NCBI RefSeq assembly: GCF_056746865.1
Contig: NZ_JBWKMP010000002.1
DNA: 64,000 nt
Direction: 5' to 3' (one strand)
Origin: a plasmid
The position numbers and the translations under genes were made by a program. Shown here piece after piece: positions 11,775 to 45,577 of this stretch. The notes below the pieces were generated by a model. The model was not told where the DNA came from and did not search any database. It saw only the letters and a list, made by a program, of their open reading frames with translations. Every line of letters starts with the position of its first letter. The stretch's first letter is position 1.

Positions 11775-12329
11775 CTATTTTGAATTCTTGGCTTCAGATA
11801 AGCGAAGCGCGGTAATTATAGACTCGGAGCTTACCCAAGGCGTTTTTTGAGCAAGATATCCAAGTATGTAGAGGCCAATTTTAACGCAGTCCATTTGTGA
11901 GACGGGGACCATGTGCATGAAGGGTTTTAAGCCGTCTTTATCGACTGGAACTATCCCTGCTGATAACAACAAACCGCCCCTCTCGTTTGGGGTAACGCTT
12001 ATATTTTTGTATACGACGTGGCCATGATGTGAGGTTTTCCTCTTATCAATTTTTAAAGTATGCATGATTCTAAGAAATACAGATGCCATCTGCATAACTT
12101 CATTCGTCGACAATTTTAGAAGTACAGAACGGTTTGAGCCCCAGTCATAATCTTTTTTGGCGTTCCTCGGAGCGACGTGCAATGTAAGATAATAATTATC
12201 AATCTCATTTGAAAAAGGTGAAGGTTTTGATGAGCTAACATCTTCATTGTTCATCTCAATGACAAGTGCTGCATCCTGACCAAAAGCTTTTACATTATGG
12301 TTTTTAAGAGAGAAGTCTGAAGTTGCCAT
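11775..12329 (-). CDS. Hypothetical protein, third gene of the transfer operon that ends in trhN (htd-gene position)
   Basis: The track ORF runs to 12356. I prefer the ATG at 12329 (MATSDFSLKNH...) because the extra codons are the AAAAGTCACTTTT palindrome that overlaps the upstream stop. No family recognised. Confidence 0.5.
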   Translation of the reverse strand: MATSDFSLKNHNVKAFGQDAALVIEMNNEDVSSSKPSPFSNEIDNYYLTLHVAPRNAKKDYDWGSNRSVLLKLSTNEVMQMASVFLRIMHTLKIDKRKTSHHGHVVYKNISVTPNERGGLLLSAGIVPVDKDGLKPFMHMVPVSQMDCVKIGLYILGYLAQKTPWVSSESIITALRLSEAKNSK

Positions 12330-12332
12330 ATA

Positions 12333-12345
12333 AAAAGTCACTTTT
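12333..12345. promoter_or_regulatory. Dispersed palindrome AAAAGTCACTTTT at a gene junction
   Basis: Perfect 6+1+6 palindrome immediately 5' of the ATG at 12329, overlapping the stop of the 141-aa ORF. Its extended context ATCAAAAGTGACTTTTTAT matches the sites at 34319 and 45500. Confidence 0.45.
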
Positions 12346-12763
12346 GATAAAACCACATACCACCTAATGATTCATCATCGGCAAGATGCTTGAAATTTGA
12401 GAGTGTATATCCTGTTTTGGTTTCAGAAATCACCATGCTGTAAGATGCCGTATGTACAAGGCGAGAATTGTTTAGATCAAGATCATCACAAAAACCAGGG
12501 CTTTTGACGGGGTCAGCCTTTTCAACAAAAGTTACTTTTGAAGCGATGCCGTTGATCACGATTTTCTCGTTATCAGCAATTTTAATGTTTAAAGAAGGCG
12601 AGCTTTTATCACATGGCAGGAAGAGTGATGTCTTTTTAAATGTGTTTCCAGTGAAGTCCAAAAGGTCAGGTTTAACCGGAACATTGTTTAGGATTTTATA
12701 AACTCCAGCAAATGCACATATCACAACAAAACCAGATAAAACATATCTAATCTTAGACTTCAT
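12338..12763 (-). CDS. Hypothetical membrane-anchored or secreted protein
   Basis: 141 aa with an N-terminal hydrophobic segment (YVLSGFVVICAFAGVYKIL). Overlapping ends suggest translational coupling to its neighbours. Confidence 0.5.
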   Translation of the reverse strand: MKSKIRYVLSGFVVICAFAGVYKILNNVPVKPDLLDFTGNTFKKTSLFLPCDKSSPSLNIKIADNEKIVINGIASKVTFVEKADPVKSPGFCDDLDLNNSRLVHTASYSMVISETKTGYTLSNFKHLADDESLGGMWFYQK

Positions 12764-13088
12764 CCCCCAGTTCCTCTCCTAAAAGTTTTAACGCACTTAC
12801 GCACATAAGCCTCAACTGATACAGTAAGTTATCAGCGGTTATTCCACCAACGAAGGTAACTGTACGTCGTATTGATGCTCCGCCAGGCTCGCACTGGATA
12901 TGGCCGATACCAGAATCACGGAGGAAGTCATTTTCTGCACTTACAAGGTCTGACTCTACAGGTGGAATGATAACTTCAATGAGTATTGTATCAACTGGGG
13001 CCCACTCCCAATCGAACTTAAGAGAGGAAATTGGGGATATAGAAACAAGAAGCTCATCAATATTAAAAATTACGGGTTTTATTCCCAT
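12753..13088 (-). CDS. Hypothetical protein, first gene of the operon (positional equivalent of IncHI htdA)
   Basis: 111 aa, preceded by a 520-bp AT-rich non-coding region. No motif recognised, so the assignment is by position only. Confidence 0.4.
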   Translation of the reverse strand: MGIKPVIFNIDELLVSISPISSLKFDWEWAPVDTILIEVIIPPVESDLVSAENDFLRDSGIGHIQCEPGGASIRRTVTFVGGITADNLLYQLRLMCVSALKLLGEELGDEV

Positions 13089-13530
13089 AACCTCAGACTG
13101 AATGAAGCGGCTTTCTAACCATAACTACCGGAAACTCTGAAATAGTCAGAACTCCGATTAACTGGTCTCGGCGTAAACCATGTATTAGTGAGTTGCGAGA
13201 TAGCATTCGATCAGCCTTTATTATAATAATCAAACATTTGGGACAAGAACAAAAGGGATTACAGAAACGAAGATTCTACATGAACATCGTTGTCAGTGAC
13301 CTTAGGTCCATCGGGTATAAGGGTATCAAAAAATCCTTACATAACCATTAAAGCACAGAGACTTTATAAGTAAAATAATAATTAAGTACCAGATTTATTA
13401 AGATAATTCTTAGGTTTTTTACAAATTTAGGAAAAATCCGCACTTCCTGTAACAGCACCCAAATTAACCTAAAATACCGTTTCATTAACAGTAATTTTAC
13501 ATACCCAGGTGAAGCCTGAAATTATTATAA

Positions 13531-13560
13531 CAAAAAAAAGGCCAGCAAGTATGCTGGCTT
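13531..13560 (-). terminator. Rho-independent terminator after parR
   Basis: Stem GCCAGCA / TGCTGGC (13541-13547 and 13552-13558) with loop AGTA. On the minus strand it is followed by T8 (A8 at 13532-13539). Confidence 0.7.
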
Positions 13561-13609
13561 TCCTGGTAAGACAAGTTGGAACTCAGAAGTCGATTGTACT
13601 GTCTCTCAC

Positions 13610-14248: not shown

Positions 14249-14259
14249 GTTCTAGCTCA

Positions 14260-15494: not shown

Positions 15495-15505
15495 AAAGTT
15501 ACTTT
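15495..15505. promoter_or_regulatory. Dispersed palindrome AAAGTTACTTT in the divergent parM / 315-aa gene promoter region
   Basis: Exact 5+1+5 palindrome, ~190 bp upstream of parM and ~160 bp upstream of the gene starting at 15661. Confidence 0.4.
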
Positions 15506-17442: not shown

Positions 17443-17956
17443 AGTTATCACACTTTTATTGTTTGCATTACTGACTGGTTGTCAGTCAGTAGAAAGTAAA
17501 ATCGAAGAACTCCCGATAGTTGGTTTTGACCCTATTCTATACAATAAAAGTGAGGCCTTTACTGACGGAAAAGTTACTTTACGTGTCGAAAGTTCAGGAA
17601 CTGATGTTTGGCTTGTCGCCAAGAATGGAACCAGAAGTTTTATTGAGCTTTCAGGCCTAACGCTAGGTGGTAGTCGTTGTGCTTACAATGCCCGTAGTAA
17701 GCAACTTTTGCCCCCAGGCAGCGTAAGCACATTCGTAGTTCCTACGGTTGGAATGCTTGGACTTTGCTTCAACAATGAAGATCAACTTATGTTTATTAAC
17801 CGTGCTTTTAGCAGAATCTCTCCCAAAGCAAAAGGAAAAGATTCTCTTTCTCTTTTATTTTCTGTTAGTTACGATTTTCCCGGAAAAGCGGACCTAATTA
17901 ATAACCACGATTTTCAAGAGTTATATCTTTTATTTTTGAATGAGGATAATCTATGA
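17435..17956 (+). CDS. Lipoprotein, function unknown
   Basis: 173 aa with lipobox LLTGC at the end of signal peptide MIKVITLLLFALLTGCQS. Confidence 0.6.
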   Translation: MIKVITLLLFALLTGCQSVESKIEELPIVGFDPILYNKSEAFTDGKVTLRVESSGTDVWLVAKNGTRSFIELSGLTLGGSRCAYNARSKQLLPPGSVSTFVVPTVGMLGLCFNNEDQLMFINRAFSRISPKAKGKDSLSLLFSVSYDFPGKADLINNHDFQELYLLFLNEDNL

Positions 17957-21054: not shown

Positions 21055-24047
21055 CCACTACGAATTATGGGAGCAAAGTTAGCGACCTAGCCCAGAACTG
21101 AAACCCAACTTCAGGAGGCAACCCCAGTGTGGCGATTGGAGTTAATCTGCCAGCGGCTGACAGTGTCCTGGCTCCTTTCTCCGTGGCCCACCACGCCCTG
21201 ATTAAAATCCCCTGCCCGGTATTGTATGGAGCGAAAAAAGCCCGTGCATTTGTGTCGGCAGACCGGCATGAAGGAATATGACGTTAATCTGTATCAGCAG
21301 GCACTTTTCGCATGATGGGAGCAAGTGATAGCAACCCCGCCCAGAACGGAAGGCCAGCATCAGGACAAAACCCAAGTTTGGCGATTAAGGGGGTTAAATT
21401 TGCAAGCGGATGACAGTGCCCCAGCTGCTGCTCAGTCACACCACGCCCTGAGTAAATCTCTCGCCAGGTCTTGTTATGACCGAAAATAGCCCAAGCACTG
21501 GTGTCGGCAGACCGGCATACAGGAATATGACGTTAATCTGTATCAGCAGATACATTTCGCATTATGGGAGCAAGAGATAGCAACCCAGCCCAGAACTGAA
21601 GGCCAGCATGAGGACAGAACACCAGTTTGGCGATTAAGGGAGTTAAATATGCAAGCTGCTGATAGTGCCCCAGCTCCTGCTCAGTAACACCACGCCCTGA
21701 TAAAATCTCCTGCCCGGTAATGTAATGACCGAAAAAAGGCCGTGCACTGGTGTCGGCAGACCGGCACGCAGGAAAATGACGTTAATCTGTATTAACAGAC
21801 ACATTTCGCATTAGGGGAGCAAGTGATAGCCACCCAGCCCAGAACTGAAGGCCAGCATCAGGACAGTACCCCAGTTTGGCGATTAAGGGGGTTAAATCCG
21901 CCAGTGGCTGTAAGTGCCCGAGCGGTGTATAAGAAATATTTCCCGAAGGACAATCTTTCGCTCGTACGATGAATAAAGTGTTCAACCCGGGAGCGGGGAT
22001 CACTTACCTGCTTAGCCTAAATCTTACGTCATTCTTAAACGGAGTTTAAGCTTAATGGTCCTTAGAAAGTTAAAAGGACTACCCATAATGACGTCTTGAG
22101 ATGGCGAATAAAGGGTTTTAATCTGCCAGCGGCTCAACAGTGCCCCAGCTTCTGCTCAGTCACACCACGCCTGATTAAATCTCCCGCCAGGTCTTATTAT
22201 GACCGAAAATAGTCCCCGTGCACTAGAGTCGTAAGACCGGCATACAGGAATGAAGCTTAAATCTTTATCAGGTTGCAAGGTTCGCATCATGGGAGCAAGG
22301 GCCTTGAACTGTAGGTTAACATCAGAAAATCCCAGATTGGCGATTAAGGGGGTTAAATCTGACAGCGACTGAAAGTGCCTTCAGATGCTGCTCAGGTATA
22401 TTACAACCTGAAAAAATCAAGCGTCTGTTCATGCGAATATCGAAAAAAGCTATGCACCAGTTTCGGCAGACCGGCATGGAGTAATGAGACGTTAATCTGT
22501 ATCAGCTGGCGCATTTCGTATCATGGGAGCAAGTGTTAGCAACCCTGCCCAGGACGGAAGGACACTATCAGGACTGATCCCAGTTTGGAGATTAAGGGGG
22601 TTAAATCTGCCAGTGGCTGACAGAGCCTTCTGAGTCAGACATACTATGAACGATAAAATCACCCGTCCGTCCTTGTGATTATCGGAAAAAGCCATGCCCA
22701 GTCGGCAGATCGGTATGCAGTAATGTGACTTTAATCTGTATCAGCAGGCGCAATGGGAGCAAGTGTTAGCAACCGAGCCCAGGACGGAAGGACACTATCA
22801 GGACTGAACCCCAGTGTGGCGATTAAGGGGGTTAAATCTGCAAGCGGATAACAGTGCCCCAGCTGCTGCTCAGTCACACCACGCCCTGATTAAATCTCTC
22901 GCCAGGTCTTGTTAGGACCGAAAATAGCCCGAGCACTGGTGTCGGCAGACCGGCATACAGGAATACGACGTTAATTTGTATCAGCAGGTACATTTCGCAT
23001 TATGGGAGCAAGTGATAGCAACCCAGCTCAGAACTGAAGGCCTGCATGAGGACAGAACACCAGTTTGGCGATTAAGGGGGTTAAATCTGACAGCGGCTGA
23101 CAGTGCCTTCAGATGCTGCTCAGGCATACTACTCTCCCTGATATAATCTCCCATATGTTCTTGAGATTCGCCCATGCACCGGTGTCGGCAGACCGGTATG
23201 CAGTAATGTGATTTTAATCTGTATCAGCAGGCACATTTCGTATCATGGGAGTAAGTGTTAGCAAACCGAACCCCGCCCAGCACGGAAGGTCAATATCAGA
23301 CCAGAATCCCAGTTTGGCGATTAAGGGGGTTAAATCTGCAAGCTGCTGACAGTGCCCCAGCTTCTGCTCAGTCACACCACGCCCTGATAAAATCTCCTGC
23401 CCGGTAATGTGATGACCGAAAAAAGCCCGTGCACTGGTGTTGGCAGACCGGCACGCAGGAATATGACGTTAATCTGTATCAGCAGTTACATTTCGCATTA
23501 TGGGAGGAAGTGATAGCCACCCAGCCCAGAACTGAAGGCCAGCATCAGGACAGTACCCCAGTTTGGCGATTAAGGGGGTTAAATCCGGCAGCGGCAGTAA
23601 GTGCCCGTGCTGTGTTAAAGGAATATTTCCCTAAGGACAATCTTCCGATCGGCCTTTTGTATAAAGTGGTCACCCCGGGAGCGGGGATCACTTTACCTGC
23701 TTAGCCTAAATCTTACGTCAATCACTATCCGGAATTTTAGCTTAATGGTCCTGAGCAAGTTAAAAGGGGTACCCCTAATGACGTCCCCAGATGGCGATAA
23801 AGGAGTTAATTCCGCCTTCGGCTTACAGTGCCGCAGCTGCTGCTAAGGAACACCACGCCCTGATTAAATCTCCCGCCTGGCCTTGTGATGACCAAAAATT
23901 GTCCGTGCACTGGCGTCGTAAGACCGGCATACAGGAATGAGGCGTTAATCTTTATTAGGTGGAAGGATTCGCATCATGGGAGCAAGGGCCCTAGAACTGT
24001 AGGCTAACATTAGAAAATCACAGATTGGCGATAAAGGGGGTTAAATA
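21055..24047. repeat. Non-coding tandem array: 13 units of ~249 bp arranged as a 1.69-kb higher-order repeat
   Basis: The core GGCGATTAAGGGGGTTAAATCTGC recurs at 21131, 21380, 21629, 21878, 22103, 22339, 22587, 22818, 23067, 23316, 23565, 23793 and 24027. Copy n and copy n+7 are 1687-1690 bp apart. No conserved ORF. Confidence 0.9.
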
Positions 24048-27146: not shown

Positions 27147-27154
27147 ATTTGACC

Positions 27155-28105: not shown

Positions 28106-28114
28106 AAACTAGCC

Positions 28115-28972: not shown

Positions 28973-28985
28973 TATTGGGTGCCCT

Positions 28986-29468: not shown

Positions 29469-29475
29469 TTAAACC

Positions 29476-31282: not shown

Positions 31283-31283
31283 A

Positions 31284-32559: not shown

Positions 32560-33344
32560 TTGTTACCTGTAGACGGTGGCGGATTATCCAGCGTTGCCAG
32601 TTGCTCTTTGCCGTTTATCGTAATTTTTTTAATATTCGGTGTTCCGGAATATTGATTTACATATGCAATTCTTGGGCGACCATTTTTCATCCCGAGAACC
32701 CATTCATAAGTCCATTTCGATGATTCAGTTTTGTCCGGAACATTTACAAGTCGAGTCGTTTTGGTACCCCAGACATAGACCATGTCATTTTTTGGATCAA
32801 AGTAAATATCATTAGGCTTAAAGGTCTGCTCAACACCACGAGCCTGCATGATATTTATCTGCTCCTGTAAAGACTCACTCGTTTTAGCCTGTAGTTCAGG
32901 TGAAAGGGCATCGAGGACATAGGCCGTCACAAAGGAAATATTAGTTGGATTAATATTCCCTAAAAGGGTACTAAAAAAGAGAGCCCATTGTGTTTTATAA
33001 GATTCCGATGCTTTGTTACCAACAACCGTGATCTCTTCATTCATGTTTGGAGGGGTAACAATCGTCACTGGGTCAGTGAAAAAAAGAATCTTTGCAACCA
33101 ATAACCCAATGACGGCTATTGAAACAGTATTAATGCGGATAAGTTTTGTATCACGATTAATCAGGGCGCTGTATGTAATTCCAGCACCTGACGCTTCAGC
33201 TTGTGGGCTAAATCGTTTTTTAATGTCCAAAAAACGTCCCTTAGCACTTTCATCTTTCTTTACGTATGACTGTTCAAGATCACCGTTTTCATCCTTTTTA
33301 GATTTTTTGAAAAAAGGGATGTTAATGCCACTTAGCATTTTCAT
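32556..33344 (-). CDS. trhE: TraE/VirB8-like bitopic inner-membrane T4SS protein
   Basis: 262 aa with a single TM helix (IAVIGLLVAKILFF) after a basic N-terminus. It lies after traL. Confidence 0.75.
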   Translation of the reverse strand: MKMLSGINIPFFKKSKKDENGDLEQSYVKKDESAKGRFLDIKKRFSPQAEASGAGITYSALINRDTKLIRINTVSIAVIGLLVAKILFFTDPVTIVTPPNMNEEITVVGNKASESYKTQWALFFSTLLGNINPTNISFVTAYVLDALSPELQAKTSESLQEQINIMQARGVEQTFKPNDIYFDPKNDMVYVWGTKTTRLVNVPDKTESSKWTYEWVLGMKNGRPRIAYVNQYSGTPNIKKITINGKEQLATLDNPPPSTGNK

Positions 33345-33355
33345 TCATAGCTCCA

Positions 33356-33673
33356 TCAAGAATACAAATCTCTGATAAATGGATCGTTGAAATAACGGCT
33401 ACTAAAAACTGCTTTACCTGGCAAAAAACCGAGCCACCAGAGTCTGTGTTTTAGCAATCCTCTTATTCCTGACTCAGCTGCTTTGTTATACGCAATCCAA
33501 TATACAACCGCTACTACAACAGAAAACCCGAAGCATTCGAAGATATTCCCAAATGCAACCAGAATGAATGCAAGCCCTATTTTTTTTGCATCCCAAAACA
33601 AAATCAGTAGAGGCATGTTGATCCTGAAAGGGAATCTATAGGTATGCTGAGGAACGTCGTTCTGCTTACTCAT
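33356..33673 (-). CDS. trhL: TraL/VirB3-like small membrane T4SS protein
   Basis: ~105 aa from ATG 33673 (MSKQNDVPQH...) with two hydrophobic segments. The longer track start at 33706 would read through the intercistronic hairpin. Confidence 0.7.
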   Translation of the reverse strand: MSKQNDVPQHTYRFPFRINMPLLILFWDAKKIGLAFILVAFGNIFECFGFSVVVAVVYWIAYNKAAESGIRGLLKHRLWWLGFLPGKAVFSSRYFNDPFIRDLYS

Positions 33674-33674
33674 T

Positions 33675-33704
33675 AAAAATCCAGAGAGGGGGATGAACCC
33701 CCTC
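33675..33704 (-). terminator. Intercistronic stem-loop after the pilin gene (partial terminator or mRNA stabiliser)
   Basis: Perfect 7-bp stem GAGGGGG / CCCCCTC (33686-33692 and 33698-33704). On the minus strand it is followed 6 nt later by T5. It lies between the trhA stop and the trhL start. Confidence 0.5.
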
Positions 33705-33723
33705 ATGCATGATTAACAATAAA

Positions 33724-34077
33724 TTACAGCGGTACGCCAGCATCCATAAAGGTGCTGATAATTTTCTCGCCGTTGGCCATTACCAGCATCATGAATAATG
33801 AAACCAGTGCCAGGCCCGGGTTAGACTTAAGGACAGAGAAATATACGCTTGAGATCAACATCGCGGCTGCCAGAATTTTGCCCGGAGCTCCAGTCATACT
33901 TTCACTCATGTATGACCAAATATCTCCCAGTGCCCCATCATCTGAACCCGCATATGCCAGACCGCAAAAAAGCACGGTCAGCAGAACAAACAAAATCACT
34001 TTTGCGCTTTTTGTTTTAAAAAGTGCAGCCGTGTTAGATTTCTTTTCACTAAGGCCAATATTTAAAGAAAGTTCCAT
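33724..34077 (-). CDS. trhA: Conjugative prepilin (IncH TrhA; RP4 TrbC-like type processed by a TraF-like peptidase)
   Basis: 117 aa from ATG 34077, with GGAG 6 nt upstream. It has a long leader and then two hydrophobic helices. It is the first gene of the traL-E-K-B-V-C operon. Confidence 0.75.
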   Translation of the reverse strand: MELSLNIGLSEKKSNTAALFKTKSAKVILFVLLTVLFCGLAYAGSDDGALGDIWSYMSESMTGAPGKILAAAMLISSVYFSVLKSNPGLALVSLFMMLVMANGEKIISTFMDAGVPL

Positions 34078-34318
34078 AATTACTCCGTGTAGATTTGAGT
34101 TCACGTAAACGCGAATGAATAATACTTTTTTATTCCGATCCTTCCGTTCGCATAAACCCCCTTTTTTTAACGTTTAGCGATTGGTGAATTTTTAAGCAAA
34201 GGGGCCTAAAGCATAATCTTTGAAAAGTACCAGTGAACGCTTAGTAAAAGTTTGAAAGAGGGGAGGGGGTAAGATTACGTTAAGCTCAATCCTGAAGCTG
34301 ATGAGACTCCTCAAGCAT

Positions 34319-34331
34319 AAAAGTCACTTTT
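34319..34331. promoter_or_regulatory. Dispersed palindrome AAAAGTCACTTTT upstream of the pilin operon
   Basis: Perfect 6+1+6 palindrome ~240 bp upstream of the trhA ATG. On the gene strand the context reads ATCAAAAGTGACTTTTAT. Confidence 0.45.
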
Positions 34332-34503
34332 GATGGTTTGAAAAGCTCTAACTAGATATCGGGCAGGTAACTAAGCTTCATATCTAATCTTTTTTGTTCC
34401 CTTAATATCTATCTCTTGATTCTGAGAAGGCCGCATATCACTGTGCTCCCTGGTTCGGCAACTATCAGTTGGAGAAACTACATACAATCCTCGGCCGGTG
34501 CGT

Positions 34504-35090
34504 CATTCATCTAAATGCCTTTTACACCTCTGGGCGTGAGTGGGACTTTGTCTTGTCCATATGAACATCATTCATTCGAATGCTTTTGGCCAATGCTATT
34601 TAAGCAAATGCTTTCTGGCTGAGTCCTTTTGCGAATGAGTCTTTGATATAACTGCATGAATTTTGGGTTGTTTGGTGTACTAACAAAACAAAGGCATTTC
34701 TTTGAATGCCATTGGAGTTGTGATGCTTCTGATATTTTTTTGATCTCATATCAAACACATAGTCCTTCTGATGCCCAATGTCATAGATGTCTTGGACCAT
34801 TCTCGCTCTTAACAAAGCTGTACTGTGTGTCATTCGACCTAATGCCATTCACCAAAATGCCTTTTTATACCACTGCATAGCTATGCTCGGGATACAGTGG
34901 CAAACAAAAGCATTTCAATGAATGATTTTTTGGGATACCGACATCAAAAGCATTTGTATGAATGTAAGAGGCGTAATCCACAAAAGGCATTCACGTGAAT
35001 AGAGTGCGCACGAAACCATCTTGCTCCACGGCATTTAATGAATGGGCTAGCATGTACGCTTGAGCCAGAAAGGCATACAGATGAATAGTC
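34504..35090. repeat. Iteron field downstream of the first rep gene (~11 copies, both orientations)
   Basis: Consensus AAAAGGCATTTnnATGAATG or its complement CATTCATnnAAATGCCTTTT. Copies lie at ~34504, 34569, 34691, 34840, 34906, 34946, 34982, 35028 and 35068, among others. Confidence 0.75.
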
Positions 35091-35225
35091 AGGAGTTCGT
35101 TTGAAAAGTTACTTTTTTGCACATTAAGCCGAGATGTAAGACCAGTAGTAAAAGAAGCACTAAGCATAGCACTGATAAATAACTTATTTTTCAGCATGTT
35201 ATAACCAGTGCATACCTGGTAGCTT

Positions 35226-36101
35226 TCAACCTTGTTTGGCGAGGGCCAGCTTAGGGCTTCTTTTGAAGATCTGAAATTGTATGTCGCGACCTTTCTTAAC
35301 TTCTTGATAATCGAGATATCCGATAGATTCAAGTTCCCGCATTGCTTTACGAATTATCTGGTTTTGCGTACGAATAGGGGTTGTAAGAAGCAACCTTTCC
35401 CTCAACCGTTTCATATTAACGAACAACGTACCAGCTGGCATTGCTTCAAAATAAATATAGAGAGATTGCGCAGCTTCTTTTTTAGCCAAAATGTATAGAA
35501 CCTGAAGGCTTAACAATGTCTTATGGTCGTAACGATACAGTTCCCACATAGAAGGATCCCCAACCAACTCAACAGTATCGCTTTTTGGATCAATCATAGC
35601 CTTCTGCACCAGATGCGTTACTGTGAACCGACCACTCCGAGAGTCTGAGAAGGCAAGCACTACCGATGCAAGGTTCATTAATGACTCTTTAAAGCGCGCA
35701 CGAGTTCGTTTGTTGATGTTTGTTGAACTGATACCACACATCTTCGCAAACTCGTTAAAAGTCAGGGTAATCTTCTCGGAAGTAAAACCATATTTACTGA
35801 AAGCCATGATGATCCCGAGCCAGCACTTAAAGTCGGTAGACATAGATAGTTTGACACCAGTTATCTTGATGTCGTCATAACCCTCCGATCTTGCAATTTC
35901 CATACACGAAAGCTCATCAGAGGCATCAACTTCAAAGTTTCGGTCGCGGTTTTCTTTTGTGCCGACAGGGGTAAATACACTCAATCTCAACAGGGCCACG
36001 GGCTGAACCGACTTGGACGAGTTAGGCGTCAGTTGATAAGTCTTACCTGATTCATTACTGGTTACGTCAAAAGGATGGATTAACTCGTTGTTTTTAATCA
36101 T
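35226..36101 (-). CDS. repA: Iteron-binding replication initiator (RepA of a RepHI-type replicon)
   Basis: 291 aa flanked on both sides by iterons and next to a GATC/AT-rich region. It is clearly paralogous to the second Rep at 49297..50383 (LRLSVFTP / MRLGLFVP and WELYRYDHK / FELYQYDHK). Confidence 0.8.
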   Translation of the reverse strand: MIKNNELIHPFDVTSNESGKTYQLTPNSSKSVQPVALLRLSVFTPVGTKENRDRNFEVDASDELSCMEIARSEGYDDIKITGVKLSMSTDFKCWLGIIMAFSKYGFTSEKITLTFNEFAKMCGISSTNINKRTRARFKESLMNLASVVLAFSDSRSGRFTVTHLVQKAMIDPKSDTVELVGDPSMWELYRYDHKTLLSLQVLYILAKKEAAQSLYIYFEAMPAGTLFVNMKRLRERLLLTTPIRTQNQIIRKAMRELESIGYLDYQEVKKGRDIQFQIFKRSPKLALAKQG

Positions 36102-36577: not shown

Positions 36578-37633
36578 ATGAACAACAGCAAACATACAGT
36601 CATTGAAGTGGATACTAATCTAGTTGAAATTGAAAAGGGATTTAATCCCCGAGAGGCGGTAATCGGAGATTTGTGTTACGAACAAGAACCTGTCAAGTCG
36701 ATGATTGTGTCAATCAAACAAGCCTTTAAGGAAGGAAGGCAGGTTGATATGATCAAGGTCGTAAAAAGAAAAGGTAAATATTTAGTTCGTCAAGGTCATA
36801 CTCGTTTTCATGGCTTAAAATTAGCAATTTCTGAAGGTGCTAATATTCCAAAATTATCTGTTATCCTAATCGATTATAAAAACGAAATTGAAGAATACCT
36901 TGAGAACCTCGATGGTAACAGAAGCAATGGGCTAAATCCGGTTGGGCAAGCTCATGCATTAGCTCATGCTGTTAGTCTCGGGTATTCGGTTGAAGAACTA
37001 GCAATGCGATATCAACGATCAACTACCGCAATTCGTAATATGCTAAAAATCCTTGATATGCCATTAGAGCTTCAACGTTTGATTAGCCTAAATCTAATCA
37101 AAAAAACGCTCGCCATTGAAATAATGTTAAAATATTCCAACGATCACAAAATGGTTTTAAAACATATAGAAGGTTTCTTACCTGGCGTTAAGAATATTGA
37201 GACTACAACGAGCAAAATTGTAGGCATACCTGAACACAATGCAGCTGGAGCAGGACCAGACACCTTAAATAAAGGCGGACCAGAAAAGAAAAATTCGGCA
37301 GTCACTCGTAAGACTTTGGGTATTAAGCGCCTCTCGCATAAGAAAACAGAACGGCTAAAATCTGAATTTCTTGAGCTTGTGGAAAGTACACATACGGAAT
37401 CTATAACGAATACTCAAACAGAACTAAAATTTGGTAGAGATAGTGCACACTTGTTCAAAAATGTTAATAGTAATAATGTAATATTTTCCAATGATGGTGT
37501 TCAAATAATCTTGAATGATGAAAAGCTAAATATTTTATTGTCTTTACTTAACGACGAAAATACAGCAATCATTGTTTCTAAACCAAAATTAGAAGAGCTT
37601 CTGGAAATTCGAGATCTCCTTAAGGAATATTAA
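36578..37633 (+). CDS. ParB/KorB-like N-terminal-domain DNA-binding protein (not part of a parAB pair)
   Basis: 351 aa with AGGAGG upstream. It has the ParB-N-like signature GFNPRE ... KYLVRQGHTRFHGLKLA and is paralogous to 40844..42007. Confidence 0.6.
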   Translation: MNNSKHTVIEVDTNLVEIEKGFNPREAVIGDLCYEQEPVKSMIVSIKQAFKEGRQVDMIKVVKRKGKYLVRQGHTRFHGLKLAISEGANIPKLSVILIDYKNEIEEYLENLDGNRSNGLNPVGQAHALAHAVSLGYSVEELAMRYQRSTTAIRNMLKILDMPLELQRLISLNLIKKTLAIEIMLKYSNDHKMVLKHIEGFLPGVKNIETTTSKIVGIPEHNAAGAGPDTLNKGGPEKKNSAVTRKTLGIKRLSHKKTERLKSEFLELVESTHTESITNTQTELKFGRDSAHLFKNVNSNNVIFSNDGVQIILNDEKLNILLSLLNDENTAIIVSKPKLEELLEIRDLLKEY

Positions 37634-37650
37634 AAACGAGGATTAGTTGA

Positions 37651-38795: not shown

Positions 38796-39653
38796 GTGAT
38801 GATGGAGATGGACTTTAAAATGCACAATGATCTGGGTCTCGGTTTCATTTGTAAAAATGCAAGAACATCGTCAAAGCCAACGTTAAGAAAAGTTACTTTT
38901 CCGGTAAGCGCATATGAAACGTCTAAGCTTTCTTTAACCGGTTTTCAATGCCCCACAGCCTGCCGTTTTCCTTTTTTTGTGCTATGCATGATAATCCATA
39001 ACCATCTTTCGTCTGCATGCCCTATCACCCAAAATGAATGTTCAAATCATATCTCGCAATTTTCTATCGACATTAAAGTACAAGATTGGCTTAGCCGTTC
39101 AAGAGTAGCGTTTATTGATTTCCATAATCTTAGAAATACAGATAAAACCACTTTAATAACAGTGAACCATCTTGAAGCTTTACTTACTGTTATGTCGACT
39201 ACTCTTGTCGCTTATGTTCCATATTCAAAAAAGAGACTAAACTTTAGCTTTCTAAACTCATTCACTTTGTCTAAAACTTCTCAAAGTTACACATTAACTT
39301 TCCCGGTAGTTCTCAGTCCGCTTTTAGATGCTCTTGGCGACTTCATTCAGGAATGCATAACCGAAAAATTGTTAAAACGACGAAATTCGAATTTCATGGT
39401 TTACGAGTATCTTAAACGTTCAGGCCAGAGCTCTCATAAAGTGGAGGACATTAATAACGACTTACAGCTTAAAAGTCTAAATATAAGACTTATGAGCGTC
39501 CTTACTGGCCTTTCTCAGCAAGGACTCATTTCATTTATTTGCGAAGGAAAGAGGGGCGACCGGAGAATAGAAGAGCTTCAGTTTATACCTTATGTTCAAC
39601 GAACTTACCCTGAGGTATTAACTTTTGAGGAATGGATTAGCCTAGTTGATTAG
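38796..39653 (+). CDS. Hypothetical protein with a possible Rep-like winged-helix C-terminus
   Basis: 285 aa. The C-terminal pattern VYEYL...LSQQGLISFICEGKRGDRRIEELQFIP resembles the Rep C-terminus LYIYF...LESIGYLDYQEVKKGRDIQFQIFK. Start uncertain, because a palindrome site lies at 38888. Confidence 0.4.
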   Translation: MMMEMDFKMHNDLGLGFICKNARTSSKPTLRKVTFPVSAYETSKLSLTGFQCPTACRFPFFVLCMIIHNHLSSACPITQNECSNHISQFSIDIKVQDWLSRSRVAFIDFHNLRNTDKTTLITVNHLEALLTVMSTTLVAYVPYSKKRLNFSFLNSFTLSKTSQSYTLTFPVVLSPLLDALGDFIQECITEKLLKRRNSNFMVYEYLKRSGQSSHKVEDINNDLQLKSLNIRLMSVLTGLSQQGLISFICEGKRGDRRIEELQFIPYVQRTYPEVLTFEEWISLVD

Positions 39654-39661
39654 AATTTACT

Positions 39662-40495
39662 CTATTTCAGCACGGCCAGTATTTCTGTTTCCGTTTTCCG
39701 TGTATTCGGCTTACTTCCTACGGATCGGTAAGCGCTGAGTCTGTGTATGACGAATCCACGCTCTTCATAGAGGCCCAAAGTGAATGATGTCAGGCTATTT
39801 GATATCGCAACAGCAGCGCCTTTTCTGTGAGCGTCAACGAGCATATTTGCTAACAGCACGTGGTCGCTTTGGCTGAACGGTTTACCATCGTAACTGACAA
39901 AACTAGTTTTGCTTGTTTTGTCATATGGCGGATCACAGTAAATCTGATCTCCTTCACCGGTTGCGGCCAGAGTCTCCTCAAAACCAGCGGTGATCAGTTC
40001 AATACCTGAAAGACGAAATGAAAGGTAGTCTATTTTATTGAGGTCAAGCTTCAGTTCTGTATGTTTCCCCCACGGCACTGAATAGATTCTTTCTGAGTTA
40101 TAGCGGCACATACCGTTATAGCCCAGGCGATTCAGGGAGTAAAACAAAGCCGCTCTTTGAAGCGATTGACCAGAAATACAGGTTTTGTTGAAACGGTCCC
40201 TCATCTCATAGTAGTCCTTTTCGACAAAGGTTTTATCCGCCAAGTTTTGGACCTGATTTATAAAGTTAGTTTTCTGTCTTTGAATAGTCCTGTATAGGTT
40301 GATCAAGTCTGGATTGCTATCTGCAAGCAATGCATTTTGTGCAAACATGTTCAGAAAAACGGCACCACCGCCTATAAAGGGTTCTACCCACCGGCAACTA
40401 TGATCGTGTGGGTAGTGATGGCTGATGAAAGGCATCAGTTTCGTTTTTCCACCAGCCCATTTGATTATCGGCATGTGTCTGAGATGTCGAGTCAA
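39662..40495 (-). CDS. dam: Dam-family N6-adenine DNA methyltransferase (GATC-type)
   Basis: 277 aa that aligns by eye with E. coli Dam along its length: IKWAGGK, VEPFIGGGAVFLN, LNRLGYNGMCRYN, and the DPPY motif IYCDPPY. Confidence 0.85.
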   Translation of the reverse strand: MTRHLRHMPIIKWAGGKTKLMPFISHHYPHDHSCRWVEPFIGGGAVFLNMFAQNALLADSNPDLINLYRTIQRQKTNFINQVQNLADKTFVEKDYYEMRDRFNKTCISGQSLQRAALFYSLNRLGYNGMCRYNSERIYSVPWGKHTELKLDLNKIDYLSFRLSGIELITAGFEETLAATGEGDQIYCDPPYDKTSKTSFVSYDGKPFSQSDHVLLANMLVDAHRKGAAVAISNSLTSFTLGLYEERGFVIHRLSAYRSVGSKPNTRKTETEILAVLK

Positions 40496-40843
40496 AGTGT
40501 CTATACCTGAGAGAGAAATTTAGGTGCTGGTATCGTACCTAACCACGGGCTTTAACTAATAACTTAGGGAGCAAAAAAAAGTTGTTTAAGACGCACAGTT
40601 TTGACTTTCAGCATTTCGGATTTATAAGATTTTTCCTCACTTATACCTGAACTTTATGTTTTGGATTTATGTATTTGTTTATGAAGCGATTTTTATGCCA
40701 TCACAAGTAATGGGGAGCCACCTTTTTTTGTAAAAAATCAGAATAGGCTCAAAAAGTACCTTTTTTGCGAAAAATTATGAATTTTTTTTTCGGTAGTATC
40801 CCCGCTACGCAGAAAGTAAGCAGAAAAATGTAACGGAGCCCCT

Positions 40844-42007
40844 ATGAGTGTTTTACTGACAGAACCTACACAGCAAGCTAATGACAAGGTCTTTAAAACG
40901 GCCCATGTTGCCTTTTCAGTAGTTACTGGCACAGGCCGTTACGTCACTGGGCTTAAAGAGTTCCGTGATGCAAACCCTGAACTTTGTACTGAAGTAAGTG
41001 ACCAGAAAGCATGGGCTATCCACCCTTCAGTAATTCAGGTCACGCCAGGCTTCAACTCCCGCGAAATGGGAATGGGTGACGATTACTATAAGCTCCCTGA
41101 GGTTGAAGAACACATCTACAACATCAAGAATGCCTACATTCGAGGTGACTATGTAGACCCTATCCGAGTACGTGTCATTGATGGGGTACCTTTTGTTCGC
41201 CAGGGGCACTGCCGTTTAAAAGCCGCAATGATGGCATGTGATGAAGATCATGACATCACAATCCTTTGCGTTGAGATTAAAGAAGATGAAATTGGCTGTG
41301 AGCTCGCGACCATTGATGGTAACCGTGGTCTTGCGCTTTCTCCTGTTGCGCTTGGCGAGTCCTATCGTCGCCTACATTCTCTTGCTGGCTGGTCACTCGA
41401 ACGAATTGCTCAACGTGAAAATAAAAGCCCGACGACCATCAGTTCTCTTATCCGCCTGACAACCTGTTCTGTTGTTATCAAGAAATGGATTCATGCTGAC
41501 GCTATTTCGTATGTTAACGTGCTTTCACTGATCGATGAGCTCGGCGAAACAGAAGCAATTTCACGTATCAAGAAGATGATCGCAGAACTTGAGCAGGCCG
41601 ATGCGAATGGCATCACGGTGAAAAAAACCCAACATGGTCAGGTACGAGTCAGACCTTCAGACTTCAAGCCAGCACGGATTCCGCCGGTTATTGCCACAAA
41701 AGCCGTAGAAGGCGTCAAACTCATCACCACCAGCTTATTACAGAAACTGGGGGATATTGAATTGCCGGAGCTGACAGATTCAAGTGCTGACGAAGAAATC
41801 AACATTACGTTGAACCGCAGTACTCTGGAGATGTTGAGAAATCTTTCAAAAGAGATCACAGAATCAGAGAACAAGCAGCTTCGCCGTGCGGAGAATCGTC
41901 AGGCAAAACTTAATGGTGAGAAGCCAAAATACCCACGTAAAAAAAATGCTAAGAAGGCAGGGGAAGAGACCGATCAGGATACTGACCCACAGCCGGACGC
42001 AGAATAA
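40844..42007 (+). CDS. ParB/KorB-like N-terminal-domain DNA-binding protein, second paralog
   Basis: 387 aa with GGAG upstream. It contains GFNSRE ... PFVRQGHCRLKAAMMA and has a K/E-rich acidic tail. Confidence 0.6.
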   Translation: MSVLLTEPTQQANDKVFKTAHVAFSVVTGTGRYVTGLKEFRDANPELCTEVSDQKAWAIHPSVIQVTPGFNSREMGMGDDYYKLPEVEEHIYNIKNAYIRGDYVDPIRVRVIDGVPFVRQGHCRLKAAMMACDEDHDITILCVEIKEDEIGCELATIDGNRGLALSPVALGESYRRLHSLAGWSLERIAQRENKSPTTISSLIRLTTCSVVIKKWIHADAISYVNVLSLIDELGETEAISRIKKMIAELEQADANGITVKKTQHGQVRVRPSDFKPARIPPVIATKAVEGVKLITTSLLQKLGDIELPELTDSSADEEINITLNRSTLEMLRNLSKEITESENKQLRRAENRQAKLNGEKPKYPRKKNAKKAGEETDQDTDPQPDAE

Positions 42008-42123: not shown

Positions 42124-42254
42124 GCTTCTTTCTATGAGTTGACATCTTTAAGTTTTATTCAGAGACATAAAAAACTTTTTCGTGTCACTGAACCTATTAG
42201 GTTACTGAGCGACGTTGCTATCCTGGTAAAAGTTTTTTCTAAAGGACCGGTAAA

Positions 42255-43346
42255 ATGTCATCTCTTGATTCTGAAGCTAAACCCGATAATGCAGGTCACA
42301 GCGTACTGGCTTTAACAACCTCTCATAGCCTGGTGGTTAGCTCTCCTGAAACATTTCTTCCAGATATGCGCAAAGAGCTCGGCATTATCGCGGATCTTGT
42401 TGAGTCCTATAATGATGAACTCTGCTTGTTGAAACTCATGGCTGTCCAGTTCAAAACCCACAATCACCAGAAACTTTATTCTTATCTCTCAGGCTACAAC
42501 CACAGCATCTCAGAAGCGGATGCTTTGTTCGCAGAAAACGCTCTGAGATCAGAATACTGGAAATGCGTTATGGCACTCACTGATGTTTTGCCTATCATGT
42601 CGGATGCCAAACGTAACGAATGGGATAAGCAGTTTACGGCCGACCGTTATATTATGCCGCCTCAGGTGATCCCTGATTTCACAGCTGACGCTGTAGTGGG
42701 CACAGTCGTTGCTTTGCTTAATGACCGCAATCAATTTATTAAAGAAAGGGTTTACGACGTCTTCCAGTCTCTGAGCCGCAGTCACAAGACAAACAAAGCT
42801 TTTGGGTTCTCCACCCGCATGATCACTACCGGAGTTTGCGAGCCGTCTAAATACCCCTGGCAGAAATTAAGGGTGGATTTTAAAGAGTCTGGCATTTCAC
42901 CGCTGAGCGAGCTCCGCGTTATATGCGCATTCTTCCGTGGCGAACAGGTGAAGGCGATCCATAACACCAAATCATTGGTTGAGGCGTTGGTCGAACATGA
43001 GGGGTTCAGAAAATGGATCTGCATCGATGGCAACAGTATTCGTTTCAGGGTTTACAAAAATGGATCAATGCATATTGACGTCCACCCTGATATCGCCGAG
43101 CGGCTTAACAATATTTTATCAGCTATCGTACCGCTGGCATTACCTGCCGACCGTATGGCTCATAGCAAGAAATCTTTGGAGGCATTCCCTGTACTTAAGC
43201 AGTGCATCGACTTTGATACCCGGATGCAGCTTTCTGAACTGATGTTTAAAAATGACGGGGACAATAAATGGAGTTGCTGGACATCTTTAGGGTCTCTAGC
43301 CAACGCAAATCTTCGAGTGTTGCCGCTGACACCCTTCGGTTCTTAG
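42255..43346 (+). CDS. Hypothetical protein upstream of, and overlapping, a methyltransferase gene
   Basis: 363 aa with AAGGA upstream. No motif recognised. Its 3' end overlaps the start of the methylase reading frame by 79 nt. Confidence 0.5.
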   Translation: MSSLDSEAKPDNAGHSVLALTTSHSLVVSSPETFLPDMRKELGIIADLVESYNDELCLLKLMAVQFKTHNHQKLYSYLSGYNHSISEADALFAENALRSEYWKCVMALTDVLPIMSDAKRNEWDKQFTADRYIMPPQVIPDFTADAVVGTVVALLNDRNQFIKERVYDVFQSLSRSHKTNKAFGFSTRMITTGVCEPSKYPWQKLRVDFKESGISPLSELRVICAFFRGEQVKAIHNTKSLVEALVEHEGFRKWICIDGNSIRFRVYKNGSMHIDVHPDIAERLNNILSAIVPLALPADRMAHSKKSLEAFPVLKQCIDFDTRMQLSELMFKNDGDNKWSCWTSLGSLANANLRVLPLTPFGS

Positions 43347-43946
43347 GGGCAACAGTAACAAAATACGATGTGACATTTTCCTATGATCCGTGTGAGGTTA
43401 TTCGTTACATCGGCCAGATAGGGGAGATGCCTGATATTGTATCGCATCAGTTTTACCCTTCATCTTGCCGAATCAGCGAATATGATATCTTCCCTGCTTG
43501 GTGCAGGGGAAGGGGATACCCTCCTGGAGCCTAATATTGGCCATGCGGATTTGCTTAAATCATTCCCTGCCGGTGTGATCGTTACTGGCATCGAGCTTGA
43601 TACTTTGAATTGCCTTATCTCCCGGGCTAAGGGATACGATACGACAGAAGCTGACTTCCTCACATGGTCTAAGTCTAATCAACAGAAGAAGTTTGATTAT
43701 GTCGTGATGAACCCACCTTTTGCCGATAACCGGGCCAGGCTGCATCTCCAGGCAGCTGCATCTCATCTCGCAGCCGGGGGATCTCTAGCAGCCGTTCTTC
43801 CATTATCTCTTCAGGGGCTCGATAACCTTTTGGGGGAAGAATTCCGGACGGAATGGATGGACGTTTTTGAGAACGAGTTTGAAAACACGACCGTTTCGGT
43901 TCGCATCCTGTACGCCGAACGTATTCAACAAGAGGAAGTCCTATGA
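43268..43946 (+). pseudogene. N6-adenine (NPPF) DNA methyltransferase interrupted by one frameshift
   Basis: HQFYP (frame of 43268) continues as HLAESANMISSLLGAGEGDTLLEP ... VTGIELD ... FDYVVMNPPF (frame of 43437). Deleting one T near 43458 restores collinearity with the intact paralog at 56255..57016. Confidence 0.65.
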
Positions 43947-44119: not shown

Positions 44120-44167
44120 TTACGCTCATGATATCCTGGTGCAGTTATTTAGAATGATATTTGAGGG

Positions 44168-44629
44168 ATGGGGGACATTGTGATTAAAAGGCGTAACATT
44201 CGACGATCAGTTTATGGATTGCTTATTGTTCTTATCGCCGGAAATGTGTGGTTAGGCCTTAGAGCTGATAAAATTCATAAAGTGCGTTATCAGGATTTCT
44301 GGTCACCGGCAACTGTGATTAAAGTAACTGTAATGCCTTCAACGAATGAAACCCAGCTCAGTGGTAAAATCCCTAAATCGGTAAGAGTTTCAAACAATTA
44401 TGTTGAGTACTCGTTACCGGGCACACTCTCGGCCAAGACCATTTACCGAAGCGTGTTAGAAGATGAGATGCTCACTTTGCTTAATGCTGGAGGTCAACTT
44501 GAAGTTAAATACACTCTGGACAAGCAGACAAATCGAACTAAGGTATGCACTAAGTGCTTACGGGTGATTAAAGATATTAACCATCAATATTCAGCCACTG
44601 AGGTAAAGCATGGGCAGTCCAAAATTTGA
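44168..44629 (+). CDS. Membrane-anchored hypothetical protein
   Basis: 153 aa with N-terminal TM segment VYGLLIVLIAGNVWLGL. The start may be GTG 44180, which is better spaced from GAGGGA. Confidence 0.5.
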   Translation: MGDIVIKRRNIRRSVYGLLIVLIAGNVWLGLRADKIHKVRYQDFWSPATVIKVTVMPSTNETQLSGKIPKSVRVSNNYVEYSLPGTLSAKTIYRSVLEDEMLTLLNAGGQLEVKYTLDKQTNRTKVCTKCLRVIKDINHQYSATEVKHGQSKI

Positions 44630-44891
44630 AATTGCTGAGCAAATTAAAATGTGGATCGTTGTTTATCTAGTTTGCTTTTTAGCACTTTACTGTGTGTTAA
44701 GCGCTCTACATGCGCTTTATGATCCGCTAAATTTACCAGCCCTGACGTGGCCTATCAGCTGGTTCCTGGTGCCTGAAATGACAAGTTTTGGCAGTGCATT
44801 ATTAGCTTTTGTCCTAACGCCAGGCCTTTGCTCTATAATTGCTGTTTTATTCGGTAAGTCTATCTTTAAAAAAGCTAAAACAAAAATATAG
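44610..44891 (+). CDS. Small integral membrane protein
   Basis: 93 aa with three predicted hydrophobic helices. It overlaps the upstream gene by 20 nt. Confidence 0.5.
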   Translation: MGSPKFEIAEQIKMWIVVYLVCFLALYCVLSALHALYDPLNLPALTWPISWFLVPEMTSFGSALLAFVLTPGLCSIIAVLFGKSIFKKAKTKI

Positions 44892-44921
44892 AGTTAATTA
44901 GATTGGTGGCTCAGGTTTATA

Positions 44922-44950
44922 AAACCTCTCACTAGTGAGGTTTATTTTTT
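44922..44950. terminator. Bidirectional terminator hairpin
   Basis: AACCTC / GAGGTT stem (44923-44928 and 44937-44942) followed by TATTTTTTATTTT. It lies between convergent genes. Confidence 0.5.
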
Positions 44951-45341
44951 ATTTTTGGCTGAGATTAACAGCGTTTTCCATAAATGTATCAATAACAACC
45001 GTAAGAGACTGGCTGGTACCATGGCTATACTCAGGCCAGGGTAAAAAAGGATATGAAGAATACGCCATCAACATGATACTGGTTGGGCAACGCCAGTCCG
45101 TTGGAACACCTTTACTGTAATGGACAATCATAGCCGGGCGACTACAATCAATATCTCCAGCGTTTTTATCGAGTACGAAAGTAGCCAGAACGCCGGTGTC
45201 CTTCTGGGATACGAAAACAAGGCTGTCAGTAAAAATAAAGGCCATTAAGGAAGAGGCCAGGAAAGCGCCAGTAAATAAGGACTTCTTCTCTTTCCAAACG
45301 CGTCGAGCATATAACCCCATTAGCGCTACCGCTGAAACCAT
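44949..45341 (-). CDS. Hypothetical membrane protein
   Basis: 130 aa with two N-terminal hydrophobic segments. It is preferred over the overlapping 61-aa plus-strand ORF. Confidence 0.4.
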   Translation of the reverse strand: MVSAVALMGLYARRVWKEKKSLFTGAFLASSLMAFIFTDSLVFVSQKDTGVLATFVLDKNAGDIDCSRPAMIVHYSKGVPTDWRCPTSIMLMAYSSYPFLPWPEYSHGTSQSLTVVIDTFMENAVNLSQK

Positions 45342-45499
45342 TCCGTACCACTGATAACATTGGGTTTCCTCAACCTAGAAGTGATGGTTTCCCTGTTATT
45401 TTACATAAATTTGACTCAACAGATGCTTTTAAAATCTCGCTTCCTTGAATTTACAAACATATCAGCACAATTGGCAAACATAAAGGAGCAGCGTCTATC

Positions 45500-45577
45500 A
45501 AAAGTTACTTTTATGATTGGTTGAATACTCATTTTGAAGGCTAAAATCCAAAAAAGTGGATACAAAAAGTTACTTTT
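45500..45577. promoter_or_regulatory. Two copies of AAAAGTTACTTTT, 65 bp apart, upstream of Ig-like paralog A
   Basis: Perfect 13-mers at 45500-45512 and 45565-45577, which are 233 and 168 bp upstream of the ATG at 45733. Confidence 0.45.

Follow-up and report, generated by a model that had tools for sequence, protein, structure and literature searches.

Background

What coordinates the backbone of a large conjugative plasmid is the question raised by a 64,000-nucleotide stretch of plasmid DNA (contig NZ_JBWKMP010000002.1 of NCBI RefSeq assembly GCF_056746865.1; the whole of this stretch is termed here the window), in which a 13-bp palindrome, AAAAGTNACTTTT, recurs at many places. A first-pass annotation had singled out three copies that appeared to share identical flanks beyond the 13-mer, and had proposed that this extended site links, and may co-regulate, the conjugative pilin operon, a gene at the position of htdK and one of several genes for large immunoglobulin-like (Ig-like) proteins. 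Do these three sites form a class of their own and, if not, what are they and what might read them? The answer reached here is that they are ordinary members of a larger palindrome family and constitute no special extended class. The explanation that best fits this family, and that we consider probable, is that it is kept by selection as a duplex site of a dimeric, sequence-specific protein, likely plasmid-encoded and KorB/ParB-like, for which the gene at 40844-42007 provides the lead candidate.

The window is an IncHI2 plasmid backbone, a segment of a resistance plasmid: its positions 33000-36000 are 99-100% identical to 1119 PLSDB plasmids typed as IncHI2A, MOBH and MPF_F, and by gene order it is collinear with the Tra2 side of the IncHI1 plasmid R27. 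Sites were scored either as the 13-bp palindrome AAAAGTNACTTTT or as its 11-mer core, AAAGTNACTTT. Expression figures for R27 are those of the microarray supplement of a published study (PMC7366339), with the mapping of R-numbers to coordinates being approximate, by way of gene order and anchor genes.

Results and discussion

A sharply defined palindrome family

Ten exact copies of the 13-mer occur in the window where 0.01 would be expected, as do 19 copies of the 11-mer where 0.23 would be expected; dinucleotide-preserving shuffles of the window yield essentially none, and no other palindrome of this size class is enriched in the window, in R27 or in the Klebsiella locus described below. The specificity is sharp: besides the exact copies the window has eight with a single mismatch, located mostly at the outermost positions, and the number with two mismatches is near background. 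A logo built from 88 sites of three plasmid lineages contains information only from -7 to +7, with the consensus gAAAAGTWACTTTTc. The whole of R27 has 46 11-mers, all of them in its backbone, and 26 13-mers, with no site in either of two regions, 72,189-85,557 (which holds Tn10) and 128,808-140,898 (which holds the citrate/tricarballylate island).

The sites favor particular positions relative to genes. In R27, 46% of them are intergenic as against 20% of the DNA being non-coding, and in the window 9 of 19 are (P = 0.006); in R27 the sites are over-represented in the 300 bp before gene starts (-300 to -1; P = 0.009) and also in the first 150 bp past stop codons (P = 2e-4). The 25 R27 sites inside genes are divided among all three reading frames (13, 5 and 7 sites). 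The motif forms no stable hairpin (z-scores of -1.7 to +0.1) and matches no Rfam family, and these two results rule out a hairpin or RNA element. The use of all frames, the intergenic bias and the lack of a hairpin or of an Rfam match show that the motif is a DNA-level element. As would be expected of an operator network, it is a short, near-invariant palindrome present in many backbone copies, both near promoters and remote from them. A promoter scan around the trhA and Ig-like sites found no convincing sigma-70 promoter beside either, and an oriented alignment of promoter-proximal sites revealed, by eye, no fixed spacing to a -10 element.

The extended 18-mer

Two of the three copies singled out initially do match the extended 18-mer ATCAAAAGTKACTTTTAT exactly: the copy on the trhA side, at 34317-34334(-), which reads ATCAAAAGTGACTTTTAT, and the copy on the Ig-like side, at 45497-45514(+), which reads ATCAAAAGTTACTTTTAT. 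The third does not: the htdK-side copy reads ATCAAAAGTGACTTTTTAT, with five T's, and can be fitted to the 18-mer only with two mismatches or one inserted base. These five T's are not an error in the window, because the reference IncHI2 plasmid has them too. The 24-nt string quoted for this copy covers 12350 down to 12327, rather than 12349 to 12329 as reported; it does end, as was said, in the start codon of the 184-residue gene, inasmuch as the ATG at 12329-12327 starts the htdK homologue. In this copy the palindrome's central TGA terminates the htdF homologue that lies upstream. Overlooked at first was a further copy at 45565-45577, 65 bp downstream of the quoted Ig-like site.

The flanking bases common to the trhA and Ig-like sites beyond the 13-mer (ATC on one side, ATG on the other) do not reach significance: when 10 sites were simulated, some pair had a common flank run of this length or longer in 14% of cases (P = 0.14). 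Nor are the flanks conserved in R27, which has CCAAAAGTCACTTTTCCC before trhA and AGAAAAGTTACTTTTCTT before the Ig-like gene; a lack of conservation in homologous plasmids is what the first-pass annotation had itself named as refuting. The three-way link is not supported by R27 either, where the site at the htdK start has no counterpart.

Published expression data bear on the proposed co-regulation. At 25°C, loss of htdA in R27 raises trhA 8.5-fold, trhP 28-fold, rsp 26-fold, the Ig-like gene R0045 (the orthologue of the 818-residue gene of the window) 8.35-fold and the Ig-like gene RSP2/R0055 9.7-fold (PMC7366339). Thus trhA and the Ig-like gene indeed rise together, but so does most of R27; their co-derepression is not specific to these units because 139 of the 181 expressed R27 genes respond to htdA. 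The temperature responses of the three units in R27 are uncorrelated (trhA, 14.4-fold; R0045, -1.2-fold; htdK, -1.5-fold). That the 18-mer is a special operator subclass linking only the pilin operon, the htdK-position gene and the first Ig-like paralogue is, on this evidence, very unlikely: the two exact matches and the roughly eightfold derepression of both trhA and the Ig-like orthologue speak for it, and against it stand the inserted T of the third copy, the chance level of flank sharing, a logo confined to ±7, the differing R27 flanks, the htdK site missing from R27 and the uncorrelated temperature responses. A separate supposition, namely that a large Ig-like protein is needed for R27 conjugation, has in a broad sense support in the literature: RSP2 binds the pilus and is needed for efficient transfer in liquid medium (PMC8730810).

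Conservation among diverged plasmids

For 15 of the 19 window sites the exact 11-mer is present at the orthologous position in R27. Between the window and R27 the 13-mer is 93% identical, as compared with 58% for the ±60 bp flanks, the flank identity around individual site pairs ranging from 41 to 77%. Intergenic sites appear as islands of identity within flanks that are 41-57% identical (41-48% upstream of trhA and of the Ig-like gene). This contrast between core and flanks is in part an effect of ascertainment, because only pairs with a site in each plasmid were compared; even so, at 58% identity 10 specified bases would be expected to survive only about 0.4% of the time.

Similar positional conservation is seen elsewhere. 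Within Tra1, the IncHI2 plasmid has sites at -186 of traH, at -88 of trhR, at +353 within trhR and at +28 within trhH, and the corresponding four sites of R27 are at -192, -81, +359 and +34. An IncHI-like plasmid of Photorhabdus retains the sites before trhP, at the start of trhU and at the stop codon of dsbC. A Klebsiella IncFIB/IncHI1B plasmid, whose proteins are about 36% identical, within a range of about 30-65%, has 23 copies in 39 kb. Upstream of trhA there are four; the stretch separating htdA from the Z operon contains two 13-mers; and four Ig-like genes each have one site at a distance of 34-85 bp upstream. When one genome per species was scanned for paired sites, the only Enterobacterales contigs found were of IncHI type. 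Over-representation, sharp specificity, positional conservation, intergenic bias and, among the plasmids sampled, restriction to IncHI-type backbones are all properties computed directly.

These observations largely refute the notion that the pattern is an artefact of coding or composition--that is, of KVTL/KVTF peptides or Ig-like repeats--or else a methylation or restriction target. In its support, 13 of the 25 intragenic R27 copies read KVT[FL], some copies lie inside Ig-like genes and several genes for orphan adenine methyltransferases are part of the backbone. Close to half of the sites are intergenic, however, and the remainder use every frame; shuffles that preserve dinucleotides give practically no copies; and the intergenic sites stay identical within strongly diverged flanks. 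Methylation alone would leave the positional conservation unexplained, and restriction targets are usually avoided rather than enriched. This explanation is accordingly regarded as extremely improbable.

The same scan detected the AAAAGTNACTTTT core in tandem arrays in Bacteroidota, Firmicutes and others, including contigs of Prevotella, Lachnospiraceae, Clostridiaceae and Halothece (loci L011, L023, L027, L031, L032, L039, L042, L043, L048 and L049). The arrays are iteron-like, with a period that is mostly 21-22 bp but 32 and 52 bp at two loci, and they probably reflect an independent use of a similar binding site in unrelated taxa.

Relation to the TrhR/TrhY-HtdA circuit

The palindrome and the known conjugation circuit, in which HtdA counteracts the activators TrhR and TrhY, have much in common: they occur in the same plasmids and share many promoters (those of AC, H, trhP and the Ig-like genes), and the effect of htdA loss is plasmid-wide, as is the distribution of the motif. 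In R27, induction at 25°C is on average stronger for genes that have a site between -350 and +60 (P = 0.019), and the R27 orthologue of the window site at 7258 (-189 of trhP) is within lacZ fragment b, which had promoter activity.

A double site occurs at R27 2015-2038, where a AAAGTAACTTT 11-mer and a AAGTTACTT 9-mer are 15 bp apart, before the minus-strand block R0002->R0198. This block, which runs from about 167978 through the origin to 1718, is the part of R27 that is most repressed by HtdA (19-115-fold) and most induced at 25°C (up to 23-fold).

Could the motif simply be the DNA box of TrhR/TrhY, and thus the cis element of this circuit? Sites lie upstream of trhA, traH, trhP and the R0002->R0198 block, the genes near sites are those more induced at 25°C, and TrhR homologues are found in all three motif-bearing lineages. 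The motif does not, however, follow the set of promoters that such an element should mark: in R27 the AC (-287) and H (-192) promoters have it, but the regions upstream of the TrhR/TrhY-dependent F and Z operons lack it, even allowing two mismatches, whereas a perfect site is found at -81 of trhR in the R operon, which is HtdA-independent. Because it is absent at F and Z and perfect at trhR, the motif is not simply a TrhR/TrhY box. Over half of the sites, moreover, are intragenic or at 3' ends. TrhY's zinc ribbon may resemble that of FlhC, and boxes of the FlhDC type are long and bipartite rather than 13-bp palindromes. We therefore regard this identification as unlikely.

The ribbon in question, a C-terminal CxxC-X13-CxxC element of R27 TrhY (L005:9710-10222), is reminiscent of FlhC and of the AcaC/SetC proteins of related elements, though Pfam gives no significant match. 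HtdA was also considered as the binder and set aside: it is unlikely to bind the motif because its predicted fold, akin to type III secretion chaperones, YbjN and ExsC, binds proteins, not DNA.

Candidate binding proteins

The explanation favored here is that a plasmid-encoded dimeric protein would bind, or load, at dispersed gAAAAGTWACTTTTc sites, and that, once bound, it would coordinate the expression or organization of the whole backbone, in the manner of KorB at its OB sites or of IncC ParB at parS. The sites precede many backbone units--trhA, trhP, htdT, traH and trhR around the origin of transfer (oriT), and the Ig-like genes--and others are at gene ends or inside genes. What we infer from the computed properties of the family is that a protein binds it, which protein this may be, and what follows for regulation.

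A plasmid-encoded ParB-family protein with a helix-turn-helix (HTH) DNA-binding domain, as an operator network of this type would call for, is indeed present. The lead candidate is an orphan protein of ParB/KorB fold, 387 residues long and homologous to R27 R0042, encoded at 40844-42007 on the plus strand. A near-site, the one-mismatch variant AAAAGTACCTTTT (40752-40764 in the window), lies upstream of its gene, at -92 in IncHI2 and at -96 in R27, and in the Klebsiella plasmid an exact 11-mer occupies -112. The near-site is part of a conserved, promoter-like island within otherwise diverged DNA (window 40700-40843, R27 45040-45190), which reads GGAATAG.C.CAAAAAGTACCTTTTT..CGAAAAA...TTTTTTTT.CGGTAGTAT and which is probably the gene's promoter and operator. 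In R27, expression of R0042 is high and increases under every condition that promotes conjugation. A second orphan ParB-like protein, the 351-residue homologue of R27 R0037 encoded at 36578-37633 on the plus strand, is 30% identical to the first and is a weaker candidate: the Klebsiella lineage lacks a separate orthologue of it, and its expression in R27 is low. Pfam found no other DNA-binding domains among the window's open reading frames (ORFs) that were scanned.

Several observations weigh against this explanation or against the lead candidate. The GERRxRA motif, which serves cytidine triphosphate (CTP) binding in the sliding-clamp mechanism of ParB proteins, is degenerate in the 387-residue protein (GHCRLKA); the aligned motif of its 351-residue paralogue reads GHTRFHG, so that neither has the canonical form. 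The recognition helix differs in the Klebsiella orthologue (SEMAVRQIISL versus SPTTISSLIRL), where the motif is nevertheless identical, and the IncC homologue of the 387-residue orphan has no dispersed site family of its own. R27 genes with nearby sites are not significantly more htdA-dependent (P = 0.12), and the R27 fragment 9061-9440 carries a site, yet had no promoter activity. Finally, the occurrence of an identical motif in very divergent plasmids could point instead to a conserved protein of the host.

This last alternative--that a conserved DNA-binding protein of Enterobacterales hosts reads the motif and that IncHI-type plasmids have accumulated sites for it--would more easily explain an identity maintained between plasmid lineages whose proteins share only 30-50% identity, since such a factor would evolve slowly. 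Large plasmids of related hosts, however, show no copy of the motif in the stretches sampled (IncC, Rts1 of IncT and a Serratia MOBH plasmid), nor does the sampled stretch of a Comamonas plasmid. No regulator of E. coli or Salmonella is known to us to have such a consensus, and the consensus sequences of IHF, Fis, OmpR, Tus/Ter and P1 box A do not appear to fit. A host factor thus seems quite improbable.

Comparison with known dispersed sites

The plasmid-encoded ParB/KorB-like binder favored above has precedents. On the IncP-1 plasmid RK2, the OB sites of KorB are 13 bp long with a single central base and occur as about 12 dispersed copies, an architecture like that of the IncHI family. They differ in their sequence and in number (12, as against about 46 sites in the IncHI plasmid R27), and the IncHI ParB-like proteins are orphans without an adjacent ParA partner and with the degenerate CTP motif noted above. 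VirB of the Shigella virulence plasmid, an orphan ParB-like protein that counters silencing by H-NS, may be likened to the candidate by analogy only, and it has few sites.

Related to the IncHI plasmids are those of IncC/IncA, which likewise combine a MOBH relaxase with MPF_F. IncC has 14 palindromic parS sites, bound by ParB in electrophoretic mobility-shift assays and scattered over the conserved backbone; these are mostly intergenic, with four inside ORFs and one overlapping the parA promoter (PMC10954446). The outer half-site GAAAGT of this parS (AAAC-TTTCACATGTGAAA-GTTT) is similar to GAAAAGT, the half-site of IncHI. At 22 bp and with an even center, however, the IncC site is of another form, and it is absent from IncHI, just as the IncHI motif is absent from the sampled IncC stretch; and the IncHI Par1 ParB is of P1 type and unrelated to IncC ParB by BLAST, with no IncHI site in the par1 promoter. 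The IncHI family is apparently an undescribed instance of what are probably dispersed operator or loading sites. No description of the motif was found in the searchable literature, where a search for the literal sequence returned only unrelated matches; key older papers were outside that search, so that an earlier report is possible.

A Comamonas thiooxydans plasmid, NZ_CP083939 (L053), which has an IncC-like parA-parB-HTH operon, has a dispersed palindrome of its own, the 16-bp TTTTCGCATGCGAAAA, at 8793, 16165, 16201, 19789, 20936 and 27958; some of these copies are upstream of an orphan ParB-like gene and of parA.

The IncC precedent also raises the question of whether the IncHI sites are instead a dispersed centromere (parS) of the plasmid's own Par1 system, bound by its P1-type ParB for segregation rather than for transcription. 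Par1 ParB belongs to the P1 ParB family (PF08775) and is among the proteins better conserved across lineages (48-71% identity), and scattered parS sites are, as just described, documented in IncC. Nevertheless, neither IncHI2 nor R27 nor the Klebsiella plasmid has a motif with at most one mismatch in its par1 promoter or anywhere within or beside the operon; the htdA circuit has no effect on parA or parB; and a more conventional centromere candidate is at hand in the array of ten 249-bp repeats next to parA, which lacks the motif. Such a role for the sites is, on this showing, unlikely. The Serratia ParB, at 26% identity to that of IncHI, is too diverged to be informative. The array itself (21064-23606), examined as a possible carrier of the palindrome, has none; it might serve as the centromere of Par1 or as an incompatibility determinant.

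A more specific version of the favored explanation can be framed by analogy with VirB: the R0042 homologue, as a ParB/KorB/VirB-like orphan, might bind the approximately 46 sites and thereby set or relieve the silencing of the backbone by H-NS/Hha. This proposal is tentative, and we think it rather doubtful as it stands.

Sites and genes of the window

The genes of the window begin, on the minus strand from 656 to about 13180, with trhN, trhU, trhW, trhP, rsp, htdK, htdF and htdA. A 13-mer, AAAAGTAACTTTT, at 4893-4905 has its center 19 nt inside the trhU start, a position at which R27 (+19) and the IncHI2 reference also have it, the corresponding Photorhabdus site being at +14. An 11-mer at 7258-7268 is intergenic, 190 bp upstream of trhP (annotated trhF); its R27 orthologue is at -189, and Photorhabdus has two sites there. 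Two further 11-mers, at 8441-8451 and 10685-10695, are inside rsp, which encodes a 1434-residue Ig-like protein, with R27 orthologues at 12743 and 14987. The exact 13-mer at 12333-12345 is that of the junction between the htdF stop and the htdK start, its five T's being on the 3' side on the minus strand; another exact 13-mer, at 12527-12539, is inside the htdF homologue (R27 orthologue, 16833).

Within this block the R27 HtdK protein (L003:16077-16640; window homologue, 11775-12329) matches the Pfam Whirly family of single-stranded-DNA-binding proteins with an E-value of 2.5e-5, just over the gathering score, a sequence match that raises the possibility of its acting on the strand that is transferred. 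Compared with the reference IncHI2 plasmid, a single-base indel at 13117-13118 of the window breaks htdA, giving a stop after about 38 codons and an ORF restart at 13088, and further single-base indels affect the first two Z-operon genes (15705 and 17118) and parB (18649 and 19023). These indels may be sequencing errors; the htdA frameshift, if real, would leave the plasmid derepressed for transfer.

After the htdA block come parR/parM, the Z operon and parB/parA. An 11-mer at 15495-15505 is in the divergent intergenic region between parM and the Z operon and has no exact R27 counterpart; another, at 17570-17580, is inside a Z-operon lipoprotein gene (R27 orthologue, 22122). The tandem array of 249-bp repeats (10.4 copies, 68% matches) lies between parA and trhC, and is followed by the trhC...trhA (AC) operon at 24474-34077 on the minus strand. 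Within this operon, an exact 13-mer at 28956-28968 is intergenic, 94 bp upstream of htdT (R27 orthologue, -95), and an 11-mer at 31266-31276 occupies htdO codons 2-5 (MGKVTL), where R27 has the one-mismatch version AAAAGTAGCTTTT. The trhA-side 13-mer, at 34319-34331, is 248 bp upstream of the pilin gene, its R27 orthologue at -287 being identical at 13 of 13 positions within flanks that are 47% identical.

Next come RepHI2A and a block that includes the two ParB-like genes, a zinc-finger gene and a Dam methylase. One exact 13-mer here, at 35104-35116, is about 115 bp downstream of the RepHI2A stop (R27 orthologue, 39447), and another, at 38888-38900, is about 95 nt inside an R0040-like gene (38799-39653), with an R27 orthologue at +74 that is again 13/13 identical. 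Genes of orphan adenine-methyltransferase type are found at 56255-57079(-), 39662-40495(-) and 42255-43946(+), encoding respectively an N6_Mtase protein, a Dam family enzyme and a DUF4942 protein. In the RepHI2 region, an array at 50872-51612 with an 81-bp period, about nine copies and inverted TCACTACCGTTGTCA / GACAACGGTAGTGA units probably consists of iterons.

Last in the gene order are the three Ig-like paralogues, of 818, 806 and 805 residues. Two exact 13-mers, at 45500-45512 and 45565-45577, are 227 and 162 bp upstream of the 818-residue gene, and this pair is kept in IncHI2-type contigs of six Enterobacterales species. The 11-mers at 52267-52277 and 54491-54501 are, respectively, about 110 bp downstream of the 806-residue gene and inside its 5' part (R27 orthologues, 55582 and 56937). 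Another, at 59311-59321, is inside the 805-residue gene, with no R27 counterpart identified, and an exact 13-mer at 63479-63491 is intergenic, 254 bp upstream of an ORF starting at 63739 (R27 orthologue, 67018).

Conclusions

In Salmonella, E. coli and Enterobacter, IncHI1 and IncHI2 plasmids are major carriers of multidrug resistance, and the coordination of their backbone and transfer functions is only partly understood. The motif described here is present at the promoters of pilin, relaxosome, regulator and Ig-like adhesin genes, and its conservation extends from IncHI1 to the Klebsiella IncHI1B-type and Photorhabdus plasmids. Its sequence can be used as bait for the binder (as the duplex GGAAAAGTTACTTTTCC, with AAAACTNAGTTTT as the core-mutant form), as a titration decoy, or as a target for site-by-site mutation in studies of thermoregulated conjugation. 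If the tentative proposal of a silencing layer were true, the genes for the pilus, the Ig-like adhesin, oriT-proximal functions and plasmid maintenance would be coupled to temperature and growth phase alongside the TrhR/TrhY-HtdA switch, and the palindrome family would represent an unrecognized, plasmid-wide control layer of IncHI plasmids.

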